From an uncultured Bacteroidaceae bacterium (GTDB lineage: Bacteria > Bacteroidota > Bacteroidia > Bacteroidales > GCA-2748055): a stretch of 45,106 nt of DNA. The notes below the pieces were generated by a model. The model was not told the origin of the DNA and made no database searches. It saw only the letters and a list, made by a program, of their open reading frames with translations. The stretch lies in NCBI GenBank assembly GCA_964583445.1, contig CAZOXI010000001.1, forward strand, positions 1 to 45,106, given 5' to 3'. A program made the translations under genes and the position numbers. Every line of letters starts with the position of its first letter. Position 1 is the first letter of the stretch. Shown here in pieces: positions 3,642 through 33,570 of this stretch.

Positions 3642-4247
3642 ATGGTAAGAATAGGAAGGCAAATACCACATTTTGAGCACGTTGATCTCTCTTCGGTTGA
3701 GGCTGCTTTTTCCAAAGACAGGGTGTACAGGTACAGCCTGTCGATGCGTTTCAGCGATACATTAATGGACACGGGCAGGGCCAAGACAGTTGCCGTGATC
3801 ATGAAAAATCCGAGTGCTGCAGATGCGTTCCGGGCAGATGCCACGATCAGGAAGGTGGAGACTTTTGTATACCATCGTTTCCCGGATGTACGCTGGCTGC
3901 ATATACTGAACATCTTTGCATTCCGCGCCACGGAGCCGGGCGACCTGCACCGGGCCTACGCAGAGGGGGGAGCCATGCAGGTGATCGGAGCCGATAATGA
4001 CCATGTGATCGGAAAGGTGGCAGGTGCATCTGACTATGTGATCCTGGCCTGGGGAAACAACAGCGGGATCGATACGGTGTTGTATGAAGAGCGGGTCATC
4101 CGTATTAAGCATCTTTTGTCAGAGGTTCCCGCAGGGAAAATTTATTGTATAACAGGGAAGCAGAAAACAAAACACCCCCTGCATGGTCTAATGTGGGGAT
4201 ATGCGTATGAAATCTGTCCCGCGATTGAATATATGCAATTACAATGA
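3642..4247 (+). CDS. DUF1643 domain-containing protein
   Basis: RVYRYSL...VAVIMKNPSAADA...DATIRKV...ILNIFAFRAT...VILAWGN matches the DUF1643 pattern. The track start at 3636 is a TTG and the first ATG is at 3642. The stop overlaps the next start (ATGA at 4244-4247). Confidence 0.8.
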   Translation: MVRIGRQIPHFEHVDLSSVEAAFSKDRVYRYSLSMRFSDTLMDTGRAKTVAVIMKNPSAADAFRADATIRKVETFVYHRFPDVRWLHILNIFAFRATEPGDLHRAYAEGGAMQVIGADNDHVIGKVAGASDYVILAWGNNSGIDTVLYEERVIRIKHLLSEVPAGKIYCITGKQKTKHPLHGLMWGYAYEICPAIEYMQLQ

Positions 4248-8875: not shown

Positions 8876-8943
8876 ATCAATAAGAGAAGGTATGTTATAA
8901 AATATTTAACTCCTTCCGGACTGGCAGGTGACTTCGTATCGTT

Positions 8944-10203
8944 TTAGTTCTGCTGTGCCAGTGCCCGCCAGTCGGCGCCGGTAGGATTCTGAAACACGCG
9001 GAGTTCAAATTCCGGTATCACTGCGAGGATGTGGTCGAAGATATCGGCCTGTATGGCTTCGTAGTTGGCCCAGGCCTGGTCATTGCTGAACACATAGATT
9101 TCAATGGGGATCCCGCGTTCTGTGGGTTGCAGGTGCCTGACCAGGAAGGTCATGTCCTGGTGAATCTTCGGATGGTTGTGCAGGTACAACTCCAGGTATT
9201 TTCTGAATGTACCCAGGTTGGTAAGTCTTCGTCCATTGATCAGGTCTGAAGTATCTATCCCCACTTTTTGGTTGAAGGCTTCGATCTCTTTTTCCTTTTC
9301 TTCGATATAGTTTTTCAGGATGCGGATCTCCTTAAATTTTTTCAATTCACTGCTGTCCAGGAATCGCACACTTTGCATGTCCAGGTTCACGCTTCTTTTG
9401 ATCCGTCTTCCGCCCGAATCCTCCATCCCTTTCCAGTTGTTGAAGGAGTCCTGCACCAGGGCGTAGGTCGGGATTGTTGCGATGGTCTTGTCCCAGTTCT
9501 GCACCTTCACGGTGTTGAGCCCGATATCGATCACATCTCCATCGGCGTTGTATTTGGGCATGGAGATCCAGTCGCCGACATTCACCATTTTATTTCCGGC
9601 CAGTTGTATACTGGCAACCAATCCGAGGATGGTATCCCTGAAGACCAGCATCAGCACGGCGGCAAATGCACCAAGCCCGGTAAGCAGTCCGTTGATGGAT
9701 TGTTCGGTGAGAATCGAGATGATGATGAGTCCTGCTATGATAAACACCAGGATCTTCACAAGTTGCACATATCCCTTGATATTCCGTCCTTTCGAAACCG
9801 GCAGTTGCTGGTAGATCTCGTGGAAGGCACCGATAACGGAATCCAGGACCAGTGCACTGATCATTACGATGTAGAGTTTGGTAATGATCCTGATGAAATC
9901 TACCAGTCCGGGTGCATCGATAAGAAAGATCACGGTAGCATTGACCACCAGTGCGGGGGCAATGTGGGCAATACGTTTGAAGACTTTTTTCTTCATTAGT
10001 ATATCGTCGTACTGGTTTTTGGAGCGTTTAACCAGTTTTCCGACCACCCTGACCAGGACTATTTTGGTGATCCGGTCTGCGAGGAAGGCCAGCAATACGA
10101 TAGCGACAAACACCGTGATGTTTTCTATGATCTGGACACCGTTTCCGGGAAGTCCAATATTTTCGAGGATTGACTGGTATTTATCAAGCAGGTTTTCAAT
10201 CAT
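8944..10203 (-). CDS. mechanosensitive ion channel (MscS family)
   Basis: N-terminal TM helices followed by the MscS beta-domain (VGDWISMPKYNADGDVIDIGLNTVKVQNWDKTIATIPTYAL). Confidence 0.9.
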   Translation of the reverse strand: MIENLLDKYQSILENIGLPGNGVQIIENITVFVAIVLLAFLADRITKIVLVRVVGKLVKRSKNQYDDILMKKKVFKRIAHIAPALVVNATVIFLIDAPGLVDFIRIITKLYIVMISALVLDSVIGAFHEIYQQLPVSKGRNIKGYVQLVKILVFIIAGLIIISILTEQSINGLLTGLGAFAAVLMLVFRDTILGLVASIQLAGNKMVNVGDWISMPKYNADGDVIDIGLNTVKVQNWDKTIATIPTYALVQDSFNNWKGMEDSGGRRIKRSVNLDMQSVRFLDSSELKKFKEIRILKNYIEEKEKEIEAFNQKVGIDTSDLINGRRLTNLGTFRKYLELYLHNHPKIHQDMTFLVRHLQPTERGIPIEIYVFSNDQAWANYEAIQADIFDHILAVIPEFELRVFQNPTGADWRALAQQN

Positions 10204-21525: not shown

Positions 21526-24690
<3,165 letters not shown>

Positions 24691-24722
24691 TGTTCCGGGA
24701 TTAAAGAAATGGATTGAGGGAA

Positions 24723-24814
24723 ATGAATTCCGAAAAACTGAAAAACACCCTGCTGGCCATCATTGCATGCCTGCTCTGGTCCTCTGCATTTGTGGGGATC
24801 AAGATCGGATTGCC
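24723..24814 (+). repeat. left copy of a perfect 92-bp direct repeat (identical to 30560-30651)
   Basis: Compared base by base: ATGAATTCCGAAAAACTGAAAAACACC...GATCAAGATCGGATTGCC is identical in both copies. The flanking bases differ on both sides. Confidence 0.95.
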
Positions 24815-24869
24815 TTGCATCATGAAATTTTTTGTCCGCCGGGTTAACTTACTCTTAAGACAATTGTAA
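24723..24869 (+). pseudogene. 5' fragment of the EamA transporter gene (first 31 codons, then unrelated sequence and a stop)
   Basis: MNSEKLKNTLLAIIACLLWSSAFVGIKIGLP is identical to the N-terminus of the intact gene at 30560. It then diverges (CIMKFFVRRVNLLLRQL*). Confidence 0.85.
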
Positions 24870-25100
24870 GGAGCGGCACATTAAATTTTTATGAATCTGC
24901 TGCCCGTATTCCTGTAACTGCCTCCACAGCTGCATTAATTACGATCCCATACACTAAACCGGAGTATTGAATCCTAAATTCTTTAAGACGATATTAATAT
25001 GTATTCAAGCATTTAGTAACCATATATTAAAAATTTAGCAATCAGTTTAGATAACCTGGCCAGTACTTTTACACTCGTTATTAATTTAAAACTGATTGAA

Positions 25101-26045
25101 ATGAAAAGACATTTACTTACAATTGTATTACTTGCATTTGCCGGTATCTATACCGCAACAACGGCACAGTCACTAACCCTTAAAATTATCGAAACCCACA
25201 AGGATGGAGAAACCTCCATTTCGTATGATGACGGAGAATATGAAGGAGATTCCATTGATAAGGTGAACGATGATGACCTGGATATGGGATGGGAAGGTGA
25301 GGACCTGAATGTGATGACTGCTTACACCCGTTTCCAGAACGTCACTATTCCGCAGGGCACACCAATTGATTCTGCAGTACTTATTATATATGCACATGAG
25401 GATGAAACAGCACCAGCATATATTACTGTATATGCTGAAGATATCGATGATTCTCCTATGTTCTCAGATGATGAGGCGCTTGCAGACAGGGAAATGACCA
25501 CTGCATCTGTAGCCTGGGATTGTGTCGATGACTGGACCATGTGGCAGCCTTACCATTCGCCCAACCTGGCTGTATTGATAGAGGAAGTGGTGAACAGACC
25601 CGGCTGGGTATCCGGAAACAGCCTTACCCTTTTCATGAAGGGCGAAGACCAGGGAGCAAGCCTGCTGGATAACGGCAGAGATTTTGAGTCATTTGAAAAC
25701 ATCGAAGACCCTGAAGATGGCGGTGACGGACTGCATCACCCGGAGCGGATCCCGGTACTTAAAGTTTTCTGGGGAGGTGTTACATCTGCCATTGATGCAA
25801 GGACGGAAGCCCAATCACAATTTAATATTTATCCAAACCCCGCCAATGAAGTATTGCATATTGATCCTTCTGTGGAGGGTACTTACGCTGTTTCCGTATT
25901 TACGCTCAGCGGTCAGCTTGTAAAGCATACTGAAAACAATTCCGCAGCAACCACCATGGACATCAGTAATCTCCACAAAGGGATTTACATCATAGAAACT
26001 CTTCAGAATGGCGATCGCTCCAACAGCAAGGTAGTGATTCACTAA
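25101..26045 (+). CDS. secreted acidic protein of unknown function with T9SS type-A C-terminal sorting domain
   Basis: Signal peptide MKRHLLTIVLLAFAGIYTATTAQ. The C-terminal 75 aa or so (FNIYPNPANEVLHID...ISNLHKGIYIIETLQNG...KVVIH) match the Por secretion tail pattern. Confidence 0.8.
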   Translation: MKRHLLTIVLLAFAGIYTATTAQSLTLKIIETHKDGETSISYDDGEYEGDSIDKVNDDDLDMGWEGEDLNVMTAYTRFQNVTIPQGTPIDSAVLIIYAHEDETAPAYITVYAEDIDDSPMFSDDEALADREMTTASVAWDCVDDWTMWQPYHSPNLAVLIEEVVNRPGWVSGNSLTLFMKGEDQGASLLDNGRDFESFENIEDPEDGGDGLHHPERIPVLKVFWGGVTSAIDARTEAQSQFNIYPNPANEVLHIDPSVEGTYAVSVFTLSGQLVKHTENNSAATTMDISNLHKGIYIIETLQNGDRSNSKVVIH

Positions 26046-26071
26046 ATGATGCGTGTTTTACAAATGGTTCA

Positions 26072-26112
26072 GGTGATCCGGATACAACGTGTCCGGGTCA
26101 CCTTTCCTTCTT
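26072..26112 (+). terminator. candidate rho-independent terminator
   Basis: GGTGATCCGGA-tacaacgtg-TCCGGGTCACC (11-bp stem with one G-U pair), followed by TTTCCTTCTTC. Confidence 0.55.
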
Positions 26113-26226
26113 CAGAAATGGTTACGGGTGATTTATTTTTCTTTTTTGCGCATCTGAACAGCTTCTGATCATACAGTTATTAAACGCTATGGCAGGCATT
26201 CAATAGTTATTAATCCTACTCAACTT

Positions 26227-29124
26227 ATGATAAAAAGAGCGGTTGAACTGATCCTTATTTCAGTTGTGTTTTTGCAGTACCCGTTGATTGGCCAGGATGG
26301 CCGTTTGCTTACCGGCCGGGTGTTGGATGATGTAACCGGAGAACCCCTGGCTGGTGCAACTGTCCAGGTGGCGAATACCCTCCGGGGAACTGCAACGGAC
26401 CTGGACGGTAATTTCTCGTTCAGCGAACTGAGCCAGAGCGGTTTTTCGATTGAAATCAGTTATATCAGCTATGAATCCGCAACGGTTCCTGTTGCATTTG
26501 GAAGTGCCAGCAATAAAAATATCATTGTCAGGCTCAAACCACTGGCGACCGGGATTGATGAGGTAAGGGTGCTTGGACAGGCAGAGGGTCAGACAAAAGC
26601 CTATCTGAAACAGCGCCTCGCAGAAAATATAAAAAACGTGGTTTCGTCTGAACAGATCGTTAAATTTCCTGATCTGAATGCTGCGGAAGTGATGCAACGC
26701 ATTCCAGGTATTACCTTGCAGCGTGATCAGGGAGAAGGAAGATATGTTCAGTTGCGGGGCACCCCGCCGGAACTGACAAATTTTAATATTAACGGGGAGC
26801 AGATCCCTTCTCCCGAAGGTGGTGTGCGGTATGTCGGGCTGGATATGATATCAGCTGACCAGATCGAATTTATAGAGGTTACAAAAGTGCTTACCCCGGA
26901 TATGGATGCAGACGGAATTGCCGGGAATGTCAACATTATTACAAAATCCGCAAGTCCCGGAGAACCCAGGATATCCGCATCACTGGCAGGAGGATATAAC
27001 CACCTGATGGGAACAGACAATGAACAGATCCAGTTTTCGTATGGCGCGAGGGTAAAGAAGTTTGGATTCCAGGTGAGTGGCAGCTATTACAACAATAACC
27101 AGGGATCACATAATATGGAATATGATTATTCCAGGGGACCGATCCTTTCACAGGGACAATCTGGTGACACCACAGCAAATAATTTCTATGTGCTTTACGA
27201 GGATGTAGAACTGCGCCACTATACGCTGAACAGGAAAAGGCTGGGCCTGAGTGCGAATTTTGATTATCAGCCCAATGAAAACAACATGTTTTACTTGCGC
27301 GGCATGTACAATAAATTCAGTGATTTTGAGATCCGTCAGCGATTGTCACACGGACTTTCGGATGCAAATGACCTGCTGGAGTACAGGGAGACCAGTCTTC
27401 ACAGAAACGTCAGGCAACGCACAGAATACCAAGAGATTACCTCATTTAACCTGGGCGCGGAACATGAAATGTTTCTTGGAAGCTCGCTTGATTACGAGGT
27501 ATCTTATGCAATTGCCTCGGAGGAAATACCGGATTATATGTTCGCAGATTTTGACCAGGGGGGGATTGATGTGCGCATCGACAAGACCGACCCGGTCTGG
27601 CCGAGGATTGCCCTTGTGGATGCCGGTGATTCACTGGATGCCGTTTCGTATGGTGCATATCAATTTGATGAACTTTCCTTCCATGAAAGCATTGTCCGGG
27701 ATGTAAACACTACAGCCAAAATCAATTTTAAGTTGCCATATATGATTGGTAATCAGCAATTAGGGTATGTTAAGATGGGGGCAAAAGTCCGGGTGAAGGA
27801 TAAATATCGCAACCAGGATGCGCAGGTATTCAATAAATATTTCGAAAATGTGGCCCTCTATTCGCAAACAGGTCCGGTACTTAATCTGAATACGATCGAC
27901 GGGAACTTCCATGAACCTGACCTGCTGGGTCACGGATATGAGCTGTCCCATATGGTTGATCCCGACAGTATAAACGCCTTTTACGAAGCCCATCCGCAAC
28001 ATTTCAAATTCGATGAGCAGGATACGTGGGAAGATACCTACCAGGAGGACTATACGGCCAGGGAAAATATCTACGCAGCATACATGATGATCCGTCATGA
28101 TATCGGCCCCCTGATGCTCCTCGGGGGACTCAGATATGAACGAACAGATCTGATCTATACCGCGCAGGATGCCTGGACCGATTATTCAGACGGATTATTA
28201 AAGAAGAAGAAAAAATCGGATTCGCGCACAAAAAGTTTCTGGTTGCCGCAGGTACAGATCAAGTACCAACTTGACAACAGGACCAATATCAGGGGCGCCT
28301 TTACCTATTCATATTCACGTCCCAACTTCGATGATGCAATCCCTTACCGCAGGGAAAGCGATAATGGTGATATTGATAAGGGCAATCCCACACTTGACTA
28401 TCCTTTGTCCATGAATATCGACCTGCTGGCAGAGCGTTATTTGTCCTCAGACGGAATCCTCTCAGGTGGAATTTTTTACAAGAAAATAGATAATTTCATT
28501 TTTAATTTTGTCCGTCGCGCACATGAAGGTGAAAATTTCAACCTCTTTGGACTCAGGGAGATCACCATGGCTGTGAACGGGATCGAAGCCTATGTGTATG
28601 GTGCTGAATTTCAAAGCCAGTTTAAATTGAACTTTCTGCCTGGATTTCTGAAGAATTTCGGGATTTACTCCACCTATACATTTACAGAATCAGAAGCTTA
28701 TATCAGCAAAAGATATCCACAGGATGAAAACACGGTGATCCTGCGTTTTGACGACTATAATTCAGAATTTTTCACCAACAGTGATGAGACCGAAGTCATC
28801 CCGCTCCCCGGACAGGCAAAGCATACAATCAACCTCGCATTATTTTACGAGTCAAAACGATTGTATGCAAAAATTTCCGGCAACTATCACACTCCTTTTC
28901 TCGATGAACTGGGCAATGACAGCGGTCTTGATGTGTATTATGACCAGATTCTGCATCTTGATTTTACTGCCAATTTTAAGTTATCACCCCATTTGGTTTT
29001 ATTTACTGATATCATCAATATTACAGATGCACCTTTGCGGTATTATATGGGCACCCGTGATTATTTCAAACAGCAGGAGTATTATTCATGGTGGGGCAGG
29101 ATAGGACTTAAACTAAATATGTAA
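26227..29124 (+). CDS. TonB-dependent receptor with N-terminal carboxypeptidase-regulatory-like domain
   Basis: GRVLDDVTGEPLAGATVQVANTLRGTATDLDGNFSF (CarbopepD_reg), a plug domain (AAEVMQRIPGITLQRDQGEGRYVQLRG), then a long beta-barrel. 965 aa. Confidence 0.9.
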   Translation: MIKRAVELILISVVFLQYPLIGQDGRLLTGRVLDDVTGEPLAGATVQVANTLRGTATDLDGNFSFSELSQSGFSIEISYISYESATVPVAFGSASNKNIIVRLKPLATGIDEVRVLGQAEGQTKAYLKQRLAENIKNVVSSEQIVKFPDLNAAEVMQRIPGITLQRDQGEGRYVQLRGTPPELTNFNINGEQIPSPEGGVRYVGLDMISADQIEFIEVTKVLTPDMDADGIAGNVNIITKSASPGEPRISASLAGGYNHLMGTDNEQIQFSYGARVKKFGFQVSGSYYNNNQGSHNMEYDYSRGPILSQGQSGDTTANNFYVLYEDVELRHYTLNRKRLGLSANFDYQPNENNMFYLRGMYNKFSDFEIRQRLSHGLSDANDLLEYRETSLHRNVRQRTEYQEITSFNLGAEHEMFLGSSLDYEVSYAIASEEIPDYMFADFDQGGIDVRIDKTDPVWPRIALVDAGDSLDAVSYGAYQFDELSFHESIVRDVNTTAKINFKLPYMIGNQQLGYVKMGAKVRVKDKYRNQDAQVFNKYFENVALYSQTGPVLNLNTIDGNFHEPDLLGHGYELSHMVDPDSINAFYEAHPQHFKFDEQDTWEDTYQEDYTARENIYAAYMMIRHDIGPLMLLGGLRYERTDLIYTAQDAWTDYSDGLLKKKKKSDSRTKSFWLPQVQIKYQLDNRTNIRGAFTYSYSRPNFDDAIPYRRESDNGDIDKGNPTLDYPLSMNIDLLAERYLSSDGILSGGIFYKKIDNFIFNFVRRAHEGENFNLFGLREITMAVNGIEAYVYGAEFQSQFKLNFLPGFLKNFGIYSTYTFTESEAYISKRYPQDENTVILRFDDYNSEFFTNSDETEVIPLPGQAKHTINLALFYESKRLYAKISGNYHTPFLDELGNDSGLDVYYDQILHLDFTANFKLSPHLVLFTDIINITDAPLRYYMGTRDYFKQQEYYSWWGRIGLKLNM

Positions 29125-29207
29125 CCAGCTTGTTGGAGCAAGGAGACTTTCATTTCCAATTGCAACATGCCGGATTATTCAGCATAAATCAGATTAAATT
29201 ACATAAG

Positions 29208-30425
29208 ATGAAGAAATTAAGAACGGAGAAGAAAATGTACCATGTTCATTTCCTCAAGAGGATTACATTCTTGTTTGTTAGTGGCCTGTTATTACCTGCC
29301 GGTTGTATACAACGCGGAAGCGAATCAACTTCTGTAATAAAGGAAGCGGACAGTTTGTTGATCCAACAGCGGCTTGAAGCACGTGAAGATTCACTGGAGC
29401 TGGCCCAGGCACTCAAGGCGCAGGCAAATTTCGCACATAAACTGCAGGCAGCCGTTGAAACAGATCCCGTGGCTTCACTTGAGGGGGAAGATGCAGCCGA
29501 TGATCCTGCCATCTGGGTGAATAAAATGCACCCGGAGCAGAGCCTCATTTTGGGAACCAATAAAACAGGCGGACTAAATGTGTATGACCTGTCAGGGAAA
29601 GAGCAGCAAGTAAGGAATATTGGCAATGTAAACAATGTGGATCTCAGAGATGGTTTCAGTCTGAACGCTACAGAAGTGACCCTGGTGGCCACCAGTAACA
29701 GAAGTATTAATGCGGTGTCATTGCTGATCCTCGATCCTGTCACCGGAGTATTATCAGATACTATCCTGAATATTCCTTCGACGGTTGATGAGGTCTATGG
29801 GCTTTGCATGTTCATAGATCCTCAGACAAAAGACTATTTTGTATTTGTGAATGGTAAAGACGGGAAGATTGAACAGTGGTTGATTCAGGATACTAATGGA
29901 ATAAGTGGGGAATTGGTACGTACTTTCAGTGTGAACAGCCAGCCGGAGGGAATGGTAGTGGATGACCAGAACAGTTTGATCTATATCGGTGTTGAGGAGG
30001 AGGGTATTTATGTCACGGGTGCCGGAGCTTCAGATCCTGCTGAATTGAATTTCATCCCCGGTAGTGGCAGAATGAATGACGTTATTGAATTCGATATCGA
30101 AGGTTTAGCCATATTTTCTCACAACGGGCAACAATATCTCATGGCATCCAGCCAGGGTAATTTTTCATATGCACTGTTTGCCATTGGTGAGACCACTGCT
30201 TACCTGGCAAGCTTTGTCATTTCAGATGGTAGTGTTGACGGGGTTGAGGAAACCGATGGACTGGACATCACAACTGCATCTTTACCGGCTCCGTTCAGCG
30301 ATGGACTGCTCGTGGTCCAGGATGGTTTTAATGAGGATGGCGAACAGGCAAAAAACCAGAATTTCAAGCTGGTACCGATGACCGGGGTCAGGGAGCTATT
30401 GGATCGCATTCACAGGGCAGACTAG
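29208..30425 (+). CDS. beta-propeller phytase (3-phytase, BPP family) lipoprotein
   Basis: Strong resemblance along its length to Bacillus PhyC-type phytases (EDAADDPAIWVN, VDEVYG, NSQPEGMVVDD, DIEGLAI, ASSQGN, ETDGLD, NQNFKLVP). Lipobox LLLPAGC. The ATG at 29208 or 29235 is preferred over the track's TTG at 29130. Confidence 0.9.
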   Translation: MKKLRTEKKMYHVHFLKRITFLFVSGLLLPAGCIQRGSESTSVIKEADSLLIQQRLEAREDSLELAQALKAQANFAHKLQAAVETDPVASLEGEDAADDPAIWVNKMHPEQSLILGTNKTGGLNVYDLSGKEQQVRNIGNVNNVDLRDGFSLNATEVTLVATSNRSINAVSLLILDPVTGVLSDTILNIPSTVDEVYGLCMFIDPQTKDYFVFVNGKDGKIEQWLIQDTNGISGELVRTFSVNSQPEGMVVDDQNSLIYIGVEEEGIYVTGAGASDPAELNFIPGSGRMNDVIEFDIEGLAIFSHNGQQYLMASSQGNFSYALFAIGETTAYLASFVISDGSVDGVEETDGLDITTASLPAPFSDGLLVVQDGFNEDGEQAKNQNFKLVPMTGVRELLDRIHRAD

Positions 30426-30559
30426 AATCTTGCGGGCGCAAGCAGCAGCAGCGTAATATTTCTCATATGTCCTGCATCCTGAAGTGTCCCTTTTCAGGGC
30501 ACATTATAAGGCTGATTATTATCTCTCCACATGTGCTGAAATAATTACCTTTGCAGCGC

Positions 30560-30651
30560 ATGAATTCCGAAAAACTGAAAAACACCCTGCTGGCCATCAT
30601 TGCATGCCTGCTCTGGTCCTCTGCATTTGTGGGGATCAAGATCGGATTGCC
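30560..30651 (+). repeat. right copy of the perfect 92-bp direct repeat
   Basis: Identical to 24723-24814 and forms the first 92 nt of the intact EamA gene. Confidence 0.95.
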
Positions 30652-31489
30652 GTATACCACCCCGTTGCAGTTTGCAGGGACGCGTTTTTTTATTTCGGGT
30701 TTGCTGGTGTTGCCGGTTGCCTTCTACTATAACCCACGCTTTCTGTACATCTTCAGGACGAATTACAGGTTCATATTGTTCCTTGGTCTGCTGCAGACCT
30801 TTTTGCAATATGCACTGTTTTATACGGGGATCGATAAAGTGCCCGGATCAGTGGGTGCCATTGTGATTGGTTCAGGGCCATTGTTCATCGCTATTGTAGC
30901 CCATTTTTTTGTCCCGAACGATACAATGACTCTTAAAAAAGCTGGGATCATCCTGTTTGGATTCTCCGGGATCGTCCTGGTAAGTGTCGGCAGGAGTGAA
31001 GGAATCGATCAGGCGGTCAGACTGGTGGGAATCCTGATCCTTCTCGGGAACAATATTATTTCAGGATTTTCGAATGTGATCATTGCGCTGGAGAACAAAA
31101 AAATTCCACCGCTGGTGCTGAGTTCAGTGTCCATGATCTTTGGCGGCCTGGTCCTGTTCCTGTTCTCTATCCCGGTAGAAGGTCTGGACCTGTCTCCAAA
31201 ACCCCTTCCGTATTACCTTTCACTGGGTTGGCTCAGCATGCTTTCCGCACTGGCGATCTCAATCTGGGTGATATTGCTGAAGAAACCAGGAGTGAAGGTG
31301 TCAGATCTGAACATGTGGAAATTTCTTATACCTGTCTCTGGAGCGATTCTGGCCTGGGTCATTCTTCCGGAGGAATCACCTGACCTCCTGTCAGTGCTTG
31401 GAATGATCATTACCGGGATTGCACTGATTATTATCAGCAGGAGTCAGTTAATTGAGCGGGCAAATGGGCGCAGGGAACGGTCAAAATGA
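30560..31489 (+). CDS. EamA/DMT family transporter
   Basis: About ten TM helices with two EamA-like halves. The start is set at the ATG at 30560 (MNSEKLKN...) because the track's 30551 start is a TTG. Confidence 0.9.
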   Translation: MNSEKLKNTLLAIIACLLWSSAFVGIKIGLPYTTPLQFAGTRFFISGLLVLPVAFYYNPRFLYIFRTNYRFILFLGLLQTFLQYALFYTGIDKVPGSVGAIVIGSGPLFIAIVAHFFVPNDTMTLKKAGIILFGFSGIVLVSVGRSEGIDQAVRLVGILILLGNNIISGFSNVIIALENKKIPPLVLSSVSMIFGGLVLFLFSIPVEGLDLSPKPLPYYLSLGWLSMLSALAISIWVILLKKPGVKVSDLNMWKFLIPVSGAILAWVILPEESPDLLSVLGMIITGIALIIISRSQLIERANGRRERSK

Positions 31490-31524
31490 TTAGTTTAGTA
31501 GTCGGATAATTTGTTGCCCCCGCT

Positions 31525-33570
31525 TTGGAATACAAAAAAAGTATATTTCTTTTTGTTATGGCGATGTGTATGTCGCTCAACCAGCTAGCCGGTCAGCCTA
31601 TGGCCAGGGGAGGCGTGCTTGATCTGCGCGATGTTGAACTCAGGAAGGATGGTCCCGTGGAACTGGAAGGGGAATGGCATTTCTACTGGGGAAAGCTGAT
31701 CGATCCCGCCGGCCCTGCAGATACTTCAGGCTTGCTGGTACCGGTACCTTCTGCCTGGCACCGTTTAAAAGGAGAGGTGCCCGGGATCTCTGCCCACGGA
31801 TATGCTTCGTACAAGCTCAGGATCCTCGTCCCAGCCGGACTGGAGAATATCGCATTCCGTTTCACGGAGGTTTTCTCAGCCTCGGGGTACTATGTAAATG
31901 GGAAAAATATTGGTTTTAACGGACTTCCGGGGACCAACAGGTACCAGGCGGTGTTCGGATATACTCCATCGATGTTCGTGGTTCCGGTCACCGATTCGGT
32001 ACTCGATCTCGTGGTGCATGTCTCCAACTTTGAGCACCGTTCCGGGGGAATCAGGGGCAATGTTGAGATCGGTACTCCCATGCAAATCATGGTGGAAAGT
32101 GCGGAACGACAATACCGGGATTTTTTCCTGCTCGGGGCGCTCCTGGTGATCGGGGTCTATTTTATGGTACTCTACCTGATGCGTGCCAGGTTGTATATAC
32201 TTTTCTTTTCACTGATCGGTCTGATCATGGCATTCAGGGTCATGCTCCTGAGCGATACAACACTATTTTCCGGTGATTGGGTCTCAGGGATCAGCAGACT
32301 CAGGCTGGAATACCTCAGCTTTGACTTGCTGGTGCCCTTGTACGTATTGATGTACCGCTTCCTTTTTCCCGATGATTTCCCTGTCCGGTTGTTCAGGATC
32401 ATCCTCTGGATCTGCAGCCTGATGATCGTCCTGGTGATCATTACCCCGGTGAGCCTCTTCACTCAGGTGTTCCCCTATTACCTCGTATTTGTCATGCTCA
32501 CTGCCGTAGCGATCTTCTTTGTGCTGGCCAGGTCCTGGCTGCGGGGCAGGATCTATGCCCCGGCATTTACGATCGGTTTTGCTGTTGCTGTTTTTGGTGC
32601 GATCATGGATATGCTGAATGTTGCTGATGTAACGGAAATGCCGATGATCAGTCATTTTACCATGTTTATTTTTCTGTTGATCTATGCCATTGTCTTTTCA
32701 GCAAAGCACATTGACGAGCTGCGTCGAAACAGGCTTGCATCGGATGAGATCCTCCAACACAATGAAGCCCTGATCGCTGGTGCAGAAGAGAAGGAGCAGC
32801 AGAACAGATCGCAAAATGAAGCACTCCATATGGCCCGGGAGGAGCTGCAAAAAAGCAGGGCATCCCTGGAAACTGCCATCGAGCTGCGTAATAAATTCCT
32901 GACAGTGCTCGGACACGATATCAAGGCGCCCATCGGATATGCGAAACAGGTGATCGATATGATATTGAACGGGGACCTCGAAGAACGGGAGCAGACGGAG
33001 ATGTTGAAACTCGTGTCAAACAGCTCCCATACCACACTGGGCCTGTTGGAGAACCTGATCTATTGGGGACGTTCACAATCCGGTGAATTACGCAATATGG
33101 CTGTTCAGTTTCAGCTGAACAGGATCATCAATGAGACGATCGATCTGTTTGATCTTCCATTGAAAGACAAAATGATCAGCCTGGTCATGGAGATTCCCGA
33201 TGAAGTCCGGGCCTTTGCCGATAAGGACCACATGAAGCTTGTACTCAGGAACCTGTTGTCGAATGCGATCAAGTTCACCAAGACGGGGGGAAGGATCGTT
33301 GTGAGGGGAGCGATGGACCAGGACAGCAATGAGACATGGATCGAGATCGAGGACAATGGGGTAGGCATACCTCCCGCGGAATTAAAAGCCCTGCTTACGT
33401 CCGATGGGCTTTATTCTACAGTAGGGACCAAAAAAGAAAAGGGAACCGGTATTGGATTGCAGTTGTGCAGGGAGCTGACCGGGATCAACAACGGGACATT
33501 TCAGATCGAAAGTGAGGTCGGGAAGGGCACCCTTTTCCGCGTGATCCTGCCCCTGCACCCATCACACTGA
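31525..33570 (+). CDS. 7TMR-DISM sensor histidine kinase
   Basis: 7TMR-DISMED2-like extracytoplasmic domain (GGVLDLRDVEL...LEGEWHFYWGKLIDP), seven TM helices, a coiled-coil, an H-box (LGHDIKAPIG) and HATPase motifs (NLLSNAIKFT, DNGVGI, GTGIGL). The TTG start at 31525 gives a good signal peptide; an alternative ATG is at 31558. Confidence 0.9.
   Translation: MEYKKSIFLFVMAMCMSLNQLAGQPMARGGVLDLRDVELRKDGPVELEGEWHFYWGKLIDPAGPADTSGLLVPVPSAWHRLKGEVPGISAHGYASYKLRILVPAGLENIAFRFTEVFSASGYYVNGKNIGFNGLPGTNRYQAVFGYTPSMFVVPVTDSVLDLVVHVSNFEHRSGGIRGNVEIGTPMQIMVESAERQYRDFFLLGALLVIGVYFMVLYLMRARLYILFFSLIGLIMAFRVMLLSDTTLFSGDWVSGISRLRLEYLSFDLLVPLYVLMYRFLFPDDFPVRLFRIILWICSLMIVLVIITPVSLFTQVFPYYLVFVMLTAVAIFFVLARSWLRGRIYAPAFTIGFAVAVFGAIMDMLNVADVTEMPMISHFTMFIFLLIYAIVFSAKHIDELRRNRLASDEILQHNEALIAGAEEKEQQNRSQNEALHMAREELQKSRASLETAIELRNKFLTVLGHDIKAPIGYAKQVIDMILNGDLEEREQTEMLKLVSNSSHTTLGLLENLIYWGRSQSGELRNMAVQFQLNRIINETIDLFDLPLKDKMISLVMEIPDEVRAFADKDHMKLVLRNLLSNAIKFTKTGGRIVVRGAMDQDSNETWIEIEDNGVGIPPAELKALLTSDGLYSTVGTKKEKGTGIGLQLCRELTGINNGTFQIESEVGKGTLFRVILPLHPSH

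Follow-up and report, generated by a model that had tools for sequence, protein, structure and literature searches.

The contig CAZOXI010000001.1 of an uncultured Bacteroidaceae bacterium (assembly GCA_964583445.1), taken here at its full 45,106 nt as the window under study, carries a cassette of three genes between a lacZ-type β-galactosidase gene and the transporter gene eamA, and the cassette is bracketed by two perfect copies of the first 92 nt of eamA. We consider it likely that this locus stems from an insertion-duplication that took place only once, long ago, at the 5′ end of eamA, that it has been inherited ever since while gene conversion homogenised its two copies, and that it is not an active mobile element. 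On this reading, a three-gene phytate cassette would have entered the lacZ-eamA junction in the common ancestor of at least three species-level lineages, and its entry would have duplicated the first 92 nt of eamA, leaving a dead fragment beside lacZ, while on the right side of the cassette eamA would be intact and preceded by its own conserved promoter. The filled arrangement would then have been passed on vertically with the surrounding chromosome. The left fragment would be a decaying relic, as suggested by the sister lineage represented by the metagenomic contig L034 (45 nt lost, 4 of 70 bases different), while in the lineage of the window homologous (RecA-type) recombination would recently have copied one of the repeat copies over the other. 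The same 92 nt of homology would also allow a precise deletion of the cassette.

A repeat search of the window matched positions 24723-24814 to positions 30560-30651 as a direct repeat of 92 nt with 100% identity, a start-to-start spacing of 5,837 bp and 5,745 bp in between. A genome-wide search of the whole 4.0-Mb assembly located this sequence in just these two copies, and a perfect match of 92 nt by chance is impossible. The right copy (30560..30651, + strand, as are all window features given with their coordinates below) is the 5′ end of the live gene, being the first 92 nt of the 309-codon eamA; a contig from the Logan assemblies (L028) begins at its base 1. The left copy (24723..24814), recognised by its identity to the right one, is a dead 5′ fragment that comprises eamA codons 1-30 and two bases of codon 31 and starts 32 nt past the lacZ stop codon. 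An earlier note on this DNA, made from the letters alone, had described the repeat, its coordinates and the gene content; these were all re-derived and hold, as does the geometry it drew, namely a dead 5′ eamA fragment followed by three cargo genes and an intact eamA.

Concerning the age of the insertion, the phytase of the cassette was searched against about 5.8 billion protein clusters. The closest phytases were 85% (L034) and 83% (L035) identical, with the next best at 61% or less, and both stand in the same genomic surroundings as in the window. L034 (ENA, a 43-kb SPAdes-style NODE contig) has the order lacZ, cargo gene, TonB-dependent receptor (TBDR), phytase, eamA and histidine kinase (HK), while L035 (Logan, from another study) has TBDR, phytase, eamA and HK before the contig ends; the identity between the two is ~95%. 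Over 14.4 kb, L034 and the window are collinear, with 89.7% identity. Specifically, the identity is 89.1% for lacZ, 90.8% for the cargo gene, 92.7% for the TBDR, 87.7% for the phytase, 90.8% for the rest of eamA and 90.6% for the HK, which means that the cassette (88-93%) and its flanks (89-92%) are equally diverged. The junction between repeat and insert is common to the window and L034, with GGATTGCC closing the repeat and T(T/C)GCATCATG opening the insert, and the adjoining non-coding DNA is also the same. The left fragment of L034 amounts to 70 nt (repeat bases 23-92) with 4 mismatches to its own eamA (94% identity), and a 45-nt deletion has taken away the first 22 nt of this copy with its ATG, together with most of the spacer after lacZ, which is 32 nt long in the window (U32). 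Since lineages that are ~10% diverged have the same junctions, cassette and flanks have diverged equally far and the repeat of L034 is both diverged and shortened, these comparisons argue for an insertion that is old and vertically inherited. The recent event that the earlier note had offered as one explanation of the identical copies is not supported by these data. That note had also named the finding that would speak for an ancient fixed duplication, which was the same arrangement with diverged repeats in all relatives; this is nearly what was found, apart from the fact that not all relatives carry the arrangement.

Between genomes, orthologous copies of the repeat are 90% identical, whereas the paralogous copies of the window are 100% identical. 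The neutral left flank is 87% identical between the window and L034 and, with a per-lineage divergence of about 5-7%, approximately 10 differences would be expected in 92 nt, against 0 observed. Over the 70 bases compared, the left and right copies of the window agree throughout (92 of 92 for the full repeat), while the left copies of the window and L034 agree at 63 of 70 and the right ones at 65 of 70. Both copies of the window have, at repeat sites 41, 45 and 66, a base that is absent from L034 (both copies), from L035 and from L128, a contig of a fourth lineage presented below, and it is not credible that two independent copies underwent the same changes in parallel. Because the duplication is older than the split between the window and L034, yet the two copies show zero differences and share derived bases, gene conversion appears to be the best and simplest explanation of their identity, most likely with the dead copy overwritten from the live gene. 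Ongoing gene conversion had been the second explanation put forward in the earlier note, and it fits both the shared derived bases and the absence of the ten or so differences expected. The two copies of L034 give a weak conversion signal (4 differences in 70), and we infer that conversion in that lineage is older or rarer. Concerted evolution by conversion between dispersed bacterial repeats is well known, for example from tufA/tufB and from rRNA operons. As in those systems, the paralogues of the window are more alike than the orthologues and derived bases are present in both copies. Unlike them, the tract spans just 92 nt, one of the partners is a dead gene fragment, and the direct repeats are 5.8 kb apart, so that the same recombination can delete the genes between them. 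The general theory of concerted evolution by gene conversion has been described elsewhere (PMC3924837).

The order lacZ-eamA-HK without a cassette is the common arrangement in relatives (G009, G002, G010, G004, G016, G024, G014, L123 and L127), lacZ and eamA are also adjacent in L129, and empty lacZ-eamA sites, for which the earlier note had suggested a comparison with related genomes, were found in at least 10 relatives. The cassette is therefore an insertion relative to the ancestral order. In the closest species genome compared, G009 (EamA 90% identical, DNA ~77%), lacZ is directly followed by eamA and HK. The lacZ-eamA spacer of the outgroup L123 is 83 nt long and can be divided into three parts, here called U, M and P. 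U32 of the window (24691..24722) aligns with the first ~27 nt of that spacer (U), including the common ...GAGG(G)AAATG, and also with the 31-nt spacer of L129. The last ~45 nt before the right copy (M′-P, within the right non-coding end at 30426..30559) align with M-P of L123, which makes up the 3′ portion of the ancestral spacer between lacZ and eamA. Because the two copies are preceded by sequences of different origin, the repeat begins precisely at the ATG. As the 16-nt spacer of G009 is P-like and not U-like, its empty site was rejected as a deletion product. In L123, a 22-codon upstream open reading frame (ORF) with a GAGG box lies between lacZ and eamA (8918-9000) and overlaps the eamA start, and a phage-type integrase gene (1606-2748), which the window does not have, is located ~3 kb upstream of lacZ.

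A stretch of 34 nt leading up to the eamA ATG (30526-30559) is identical in the window, L034 and L035, which are otherwise 5-10% diverged. A motif scan detected TAccTTTG, the -7 promoter motif of Bacteroidota, at 30546-30553, which is 6 nt before the ATG, and the motif is established at the same place upstream of eamA in G005, G003, G016 and G001. Given the conserved 34 nt and the position of the motif, the intact eamA is probably transcribed from its own promoter, and its mRNA is perhaps leaderless.

The original route of insertion can be approached through the fourth lineage, which is represented by L129 (JGI 3300007536) and L128 (ENA ERZ27241908, MEGAHIT k141). Both contain the end of lacZ, a 31-nt U-like spacer and a full-length eamA from its ATG, without M-P and without the cassette, and their eamA is 92% identical to that of the window. 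They are either a pre-insertion target or a precise deletion product, and their structure fits both equally. The earlier note had regarded the repeats as a substrate for precise excision by homologous recombination, in agreement with the existence of a lineage that has exactly the single-repeat form. Two histories with equal numbers of events, neither of which involves a site-specific element, can be proposed at roughly equal odds. In one of them (model B), M-P would have been lost first, giving lacZ-U-eamA as in L128, and DNA with insert-M′-P-eamA(1-92) would then have entered by Campbell-type insertion-duplication or by homology-facilitated illegitimate recombination (HFIR), anchored in eamA. 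L128 would then be the pre-insertion target, and the start of the repeat at the ATG would simply reflect a lack of homology between target and incoming DNA further upstream. The locus has several features of a homology-anchored insertion-duplication, as the repeat is a 5′ fragment of the target, one copy is truncated and the other intact, the sequences upstream of the two are different, and close relatives (L129 and L128) hold a single-repeat allele. Campbell-type insertion-duplication and HFIR are reportedly known from plasmid integration and natural transformation. Like their products, the insert of the window is flanked by direct repeats that equal the homologous anchor, one target copy is truncated while the other is complete behind an upstream region that was brought by the insert, no recombinase is needed, and the product can revert via recombination between the repeats. 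The window differs from them in that neither a donor allele nor a circular intermediate was found and that the event is ancient and fixed, so that the mechanism can only be put forward as a candidate; moreover, the junction between eamA base 92 and the insert would still need an illegitimate joining step. Specifically, no donor allele or circular intermediate with the cassette beside an eamA promoter or 5′ end was found among the protein clusters, JGI contigs and GTDB genomes, a search in which the contigs of the EamA clusters P0125, P0127 and P0128 were not included.

In the other history (model A), which we entertain as a possible but tentative alternative, the cassette would have entered a U-M-P ancestor with a duplication of ~150 nt (M-P and eamA 1-92), the left M-P-ATG would have been deleted at the ATG microhomology, and L128/L129 would have arisen by precise deletion through recombination between the repeats. 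This is consistent with the presence of U, M and P in one 83-nt spacer of L123 while the window has U on the left and M′-P on the right, with the erosion of the relic by deletion that is seen in L034, with the recombination between the copies that the conversion signal implies, and with the lack of M-P in L128, as would be expected of a deletion product. Furthermore, it does not need the assumption of a donor allele with a pre-made cassette-eamA junction, and the eamA tree weakly pairs L128 with the window (70/54). What stands against it is the position of L128, which the HK tree (90/95) and the combined tree of eamA (repeat left out) and HK (95/98) set outside the cassette-bearing clade, and the AU (approximately unbiased) test, which rejects the grouping of the window with L128 (p = 0.004). 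If L128 lies outside the cassette-bearing clade, one gain without loss is enough. The signal of the combined tree comes from HK, and the identity profiles are mosaic. Choosing between the two models by phylogeny was abandoned, since the eamA and HK partitions disagree and eamA alone does not resolve the branching. Regarding single contigs, L035 has outgroup-like bases at repeat sites 24, 40, 69 and 87 of its eamA 5′ end (4033-4124), and L128 is closer to the window in eamA and much more distant in HK. These patterns point to a locus that is a recombination mosaic among these lineages.

A related but bolder idea, which we regard as unlikely, is that the 92-nt anchor acts as an integrase-free switch for gain and loss, where RecA would pop the cassette out, with L128/L129 as the natural product, and re-entry, or spread among related lineages, could take place via the same anchor. 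If this were true, each change would rewire eamA: with the cassette present it would be transcribed from its own leaderless promoter, and with the cassette absent by read-through from lacZ. Both the perfect identity of the copies and the mosaic local phylogeny would then be footprints of cassette traffic.

The source metagenome-assembled genome (MAG) is 81% complete and consists of 683 contigs, of which the window is one entire contig. It could thus be argued that the repeat, or its identity, was made by the assembler through a chimeric path via a shared node or a collapsed bubble, or that an empty chromosome and a separate 5.8-kb circle were joined. As an independent check, k=31 Logan contigs from three runs of one study were pulled via exact-protein look-ups. 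The contigs of the cassette and of eamA had zero mismatches to the window, and the lacZ-side contig had 2 differences in 11,224 bases. Contig breaks fall exactly at the borders of the repeat, as a repeat node with two paths in and two out should give: the lacZ contig stops 30 nt inside the left copy, the cassette contig (5,805 bp, equal to window positions 24785-30589) is the insert extended by 30 nt of the repeat on either side, in all three runs the phytase contigs stop 30 nt inside the right copy, and the eamA contig begins at repeat base 1. Three junctions out of four are verified in this way, as is the identity of the two copies at repeat bases 1-31 and 62-92, while the junction between the right copy and eamA rests on a single contig from the run with the lowest coverage. 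This eamA contig, SRR7048218_84912 (L028), equals window positions 30560-31779; it crosses the right border of the repeat unbroken, unlike in run SRR7048220. The artefact hypothesis can draw on the fragmentation and incompleteness of the MAG, on the inability of a k=31 graph to separate the integrated form from an empty site plus a circle, on the middle 30 nt of the left copy, for which independent support is missing, and on the one unbroken contig. It is nevertheless very unlikely. Independent assemblies contain three of the four junction types, with more than one run supporting two of these, the exact break points imply that repeat bases 1-31 and 62-92 are identical, and L034, an independent assembly of another study, presents the integrated order unambiguously because its repeats differ. 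The order of the parts is settled by these comparative data from L034 and not by the k=31 contigs.

It is even less probable that the left copy has been kept identical by selection for a function of its own, whether as a 48-aa membrane peptide, as part of the lacZ terminator or as a leader of the cassette. The left copy opens a 48-codon relic ORF (24723..24869) which leaves the EamA frame after codon 31 and combines 31 EamA residues with 17 unrelated ones; it has no Pfam match, a protein look-up returned no identical product on record elsewhere, and it is probably non-functional. An intact ATG preceded by a GAGG box, and the persistence of the left copy since before the split of the lineages, could speak for a function. 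Against this, L034 has lost the ATG, the GAGG box and the first 22 nt and has gained three private changes, independent selection would not give both copies the same new bases, and for RNA no family was matched and the fold after the left copy is no better than that of shuffled sequences (z = -0.26). A function of the left copy was consequently rejected, since it is not conserved as an ORF, matches no RNA family and has no unusual fold. The non-coding, AT-rich left end of the insert follows at 24815..25100 (GC 35-38%). A decayed, full-length second copy of eamA in this left end was considered and rejected, as comparison with the rest of eamA gave only chance matches of 12 nt or less, with no similarity beyond chance. 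Across 24600-30700 there was no Rfam match at an E-value up to 1.

The least credible alternative is a recent insertion by an integrative element that is site-specific for the eamA 5′ end and rebuilds the gene, with its integrase lost or acting in trans: the geometry of truncated copy, cargo and intact gene, the existence of empty sites, the promoter in front of the right copy by which the gene is restored and a cassette GC slightly below that of the flanks would all suit it, but the same insertion occurs in lineages ~10% diverged with cassette divergence equal to that of the flanks, the repeat of L034 is diverged and shortened, neither the cassette nor its vicinity holds a recombinase, scans of ~5.8 billion protein clusters and of JGI and GTDB contigs turned up the cassette at no other site with high identity, and the promoter region that precedes the right copy is not foreign DNA but an orthologue of the ancestral lacZ-eamA spacer. 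L034 and L035 thus largely refute this explanation. The earlier note had rightly reported that integrase, transposase and terminal inverted repeats are missing, as confirmed with Pfam and NCBIfam and by a scan for inverted matches. No recombinase or transposase was detected in the 5,745-bp insert, where the three genes leave no room for one, no recombinase within ~10 kb, and none among the Pfam labels of the genes called from 13.5 kb to 39 kb of the window. Additionally, no inverted match of 8 nt or more was found between the first and the last 200 nt of the insert, and the single direct match of 9 nt (GGCACATTA, starting at 24875 and 30498) does not exceed chance expectation and was not kept in L034. 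The 92-nt duplication is not contiguous with the ancestral spacer on both sides, and the marks of a transposon or insertion sequence (transposase, inverted repeats and a short target duplication) are absent. The cassette is present in one copy per genome, and the plasmid and phage collections gave no match to the insert. Among JGI contigs and GTDB species genomes there were distant cassettes only (JGI cargo proteins 49-64% and GTDB phytases 46-49% identical), and those with enough flanking sequence have the same gene order, with none next to eamA; the possibility raised earlier of the same 5.7-kb module at other places was accordingly not borne out, as these collections gave no close copy off-site. 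Genomic islands, integrative and conjugative elements (ICEs) and prophages integrate at gene ends and provide a replacement end (attL/attR), as at tRNA and tmRNA genes. With these the locus shares border direct repeats derived from the target, a restored gene, cargo, and empty sites in relatives. It differs from them in having no integrase, excisionase or mobilisation gene and no second site or host at high identity, with close copies solely at the same site (L034 and L035), in a cassette divergence equal to that of the chromosome, and in a promoter before the restored gene that belongs to the ancestral spacer of the chromosome itself. The attL/attR signature that the earlier note had seen in this geometry is hence not sustained, since nothing points to site-specific recombination or to present mobility.

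Several points weigh against an old insertion with converted copies. Vertical inheritance is blurred by recombination among the lineages, so the local phylogeny is a mosaic: HK alone puts L128 outside the cassette-bearing clade, while eamA alone leaves its position unresolved with a weak pairing to the window. For the three novel junctions, the two models above give only candidate origins. The case for conversion draws on 3-4 informative sites and on one comparator that still has both copies, and every comparator is a contig from a metagenome. For the middle 30 nt of the left copy (bases 32-61) the MAG is the only source, and an assembler could have collapsed small differences between the copies there. 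Linkage across the 92-nt repeat in the MAG likewise depends on the assembler and on analogy with L034. Finally, the unbroken contig L028 needs either low-coverage clipping of the AT-rich insert edge or a co-existing allele without the repeat-insert junction.

As for the genes themselves, the locus is framed by the lacZ-type GH2 β-galactosidase gene (21529..24690; Pfam GH2 domains), which is the conserved left neighbour of eamA in relatives, and by a 7TMR-DISM HK gene (31525..33570), the conserved right neighbour according to Pfam and to synteny in relatives. The intact eamA (30560..31489) encodes a transporter of the DMT (drug/metabolite transporter) family with 309 aa and two PF00892 repeats, and its orthologues in close lineages are 90-96% identical. 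The first gene of the cassette (25101..26045) encodes an acidic cargo protein of the type IX secretion system (T9SS), with a signal peptide, a passenger of ~215 aa and a type A C-terminal sorting domain (Por_Secre_tail PF18962, TIGR04183). Outside the sorting domain the protein has no sequence match in Pfam, NCBIfam or PDB, and its AlphaFold2 model (pLDDT 66) gave only generic β-sandwich matches of low TM-score (0.22) to GH2 N-terminal domains. Elsewhere in Bacteroidales (L039 and L042-L051) the cargo gene encodes two tandem passenger domains before the T9SS sorting domain, with an ORF of 562 aa in G002. The cargo proteins of the window and L034 have a single passenger (314 aa), which is very acidic and without family; they look as if an internal repeat unit had been deleted. 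The second gene (26227..29124) encodes a TBDR of the TonB-Xanth-Caul subfamily (TIGR01782, 454 bits with a cut-off of 310) with plug and barrel domains. The third (29130..30425, with an alternative start at 29235) encodes a β-propeller phytase (PF02333, E-value = 9e-76).

Directly after the cargo gene, at 26071-26103, there is a hairpin with a 15-bp stem followed by a T-rich tail, which may act as a terminator or an attenuator separating the cargo gene from the TBDR-phytase pair. The 152-nt stretch that precedes the cargo gene (24949-25100) has 6 mismatches to L034 (96% identity), compared with ~90% in coding DNA, and probably represents the promoter or regulatory region of the cassette.

The order cargo-TBDR-phytase recurs in G002, G014, L043, L045 and L046, while G017 and several partial contigs have adjacent pairs from the same trio. 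Elsewhere in Bacteroidales the cassettes form a conserved unit, none of them beside eamA; the trio is thus conserved as a functional unit, and its capture at the lacZ-eamA site happened once. Its function is likely to be the capture and hydrolysis of phytate, judging from the gene families involved. In Flavobacterium johnsoniae, a TonB-dependent transporter (TBDT) and a 3-phytase form the pair Fjoh_1368/Fjoh_1367, which is induced by low phosphate (PMC8115612), and in marine bacteria TBDT genes adjoin phytase genes (PMC3400609). Like the F. johnsoniae pair, the cassette has a PF02333 phytase directly downstream of a TonB receptor with an N-terminal carboxypeptidase-regulatory-like domain, and in both the capture and hydrolysis of phytate are presumed to take place at the outer membrane. 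The cassette differs from that pair in being led by a T9SS acidic protein and in having a receptor of the TonB-Xanth-Caul subfamily, and induction by low phosphate is known only for the F. johnsoniae pair.

The current understanding is unchanged by these findings. The locus is an ordinary, ancient chromosomal islet and, at the same time, a small but clear instance of concerted evolution. When cargo genes are flanked by a perfect repeat, the usual interpretation is that a mobile element has freshly inserted, and the present locus is a counter-example, where comparison with three other lineages suggests an old, inherited islet whose repeats are kept identical by conversion between a dead fragment and its live parent. 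This calls for caution when islands are searched for in single genomes and MAGs. Apart from documenting a conserved three-gene cassette that probably serves phytate acquisition and whose first gene has no known function, the locus offers a natural example of what appears to be concerted evolution over just 92 nt in uncultured Bacteroidales.

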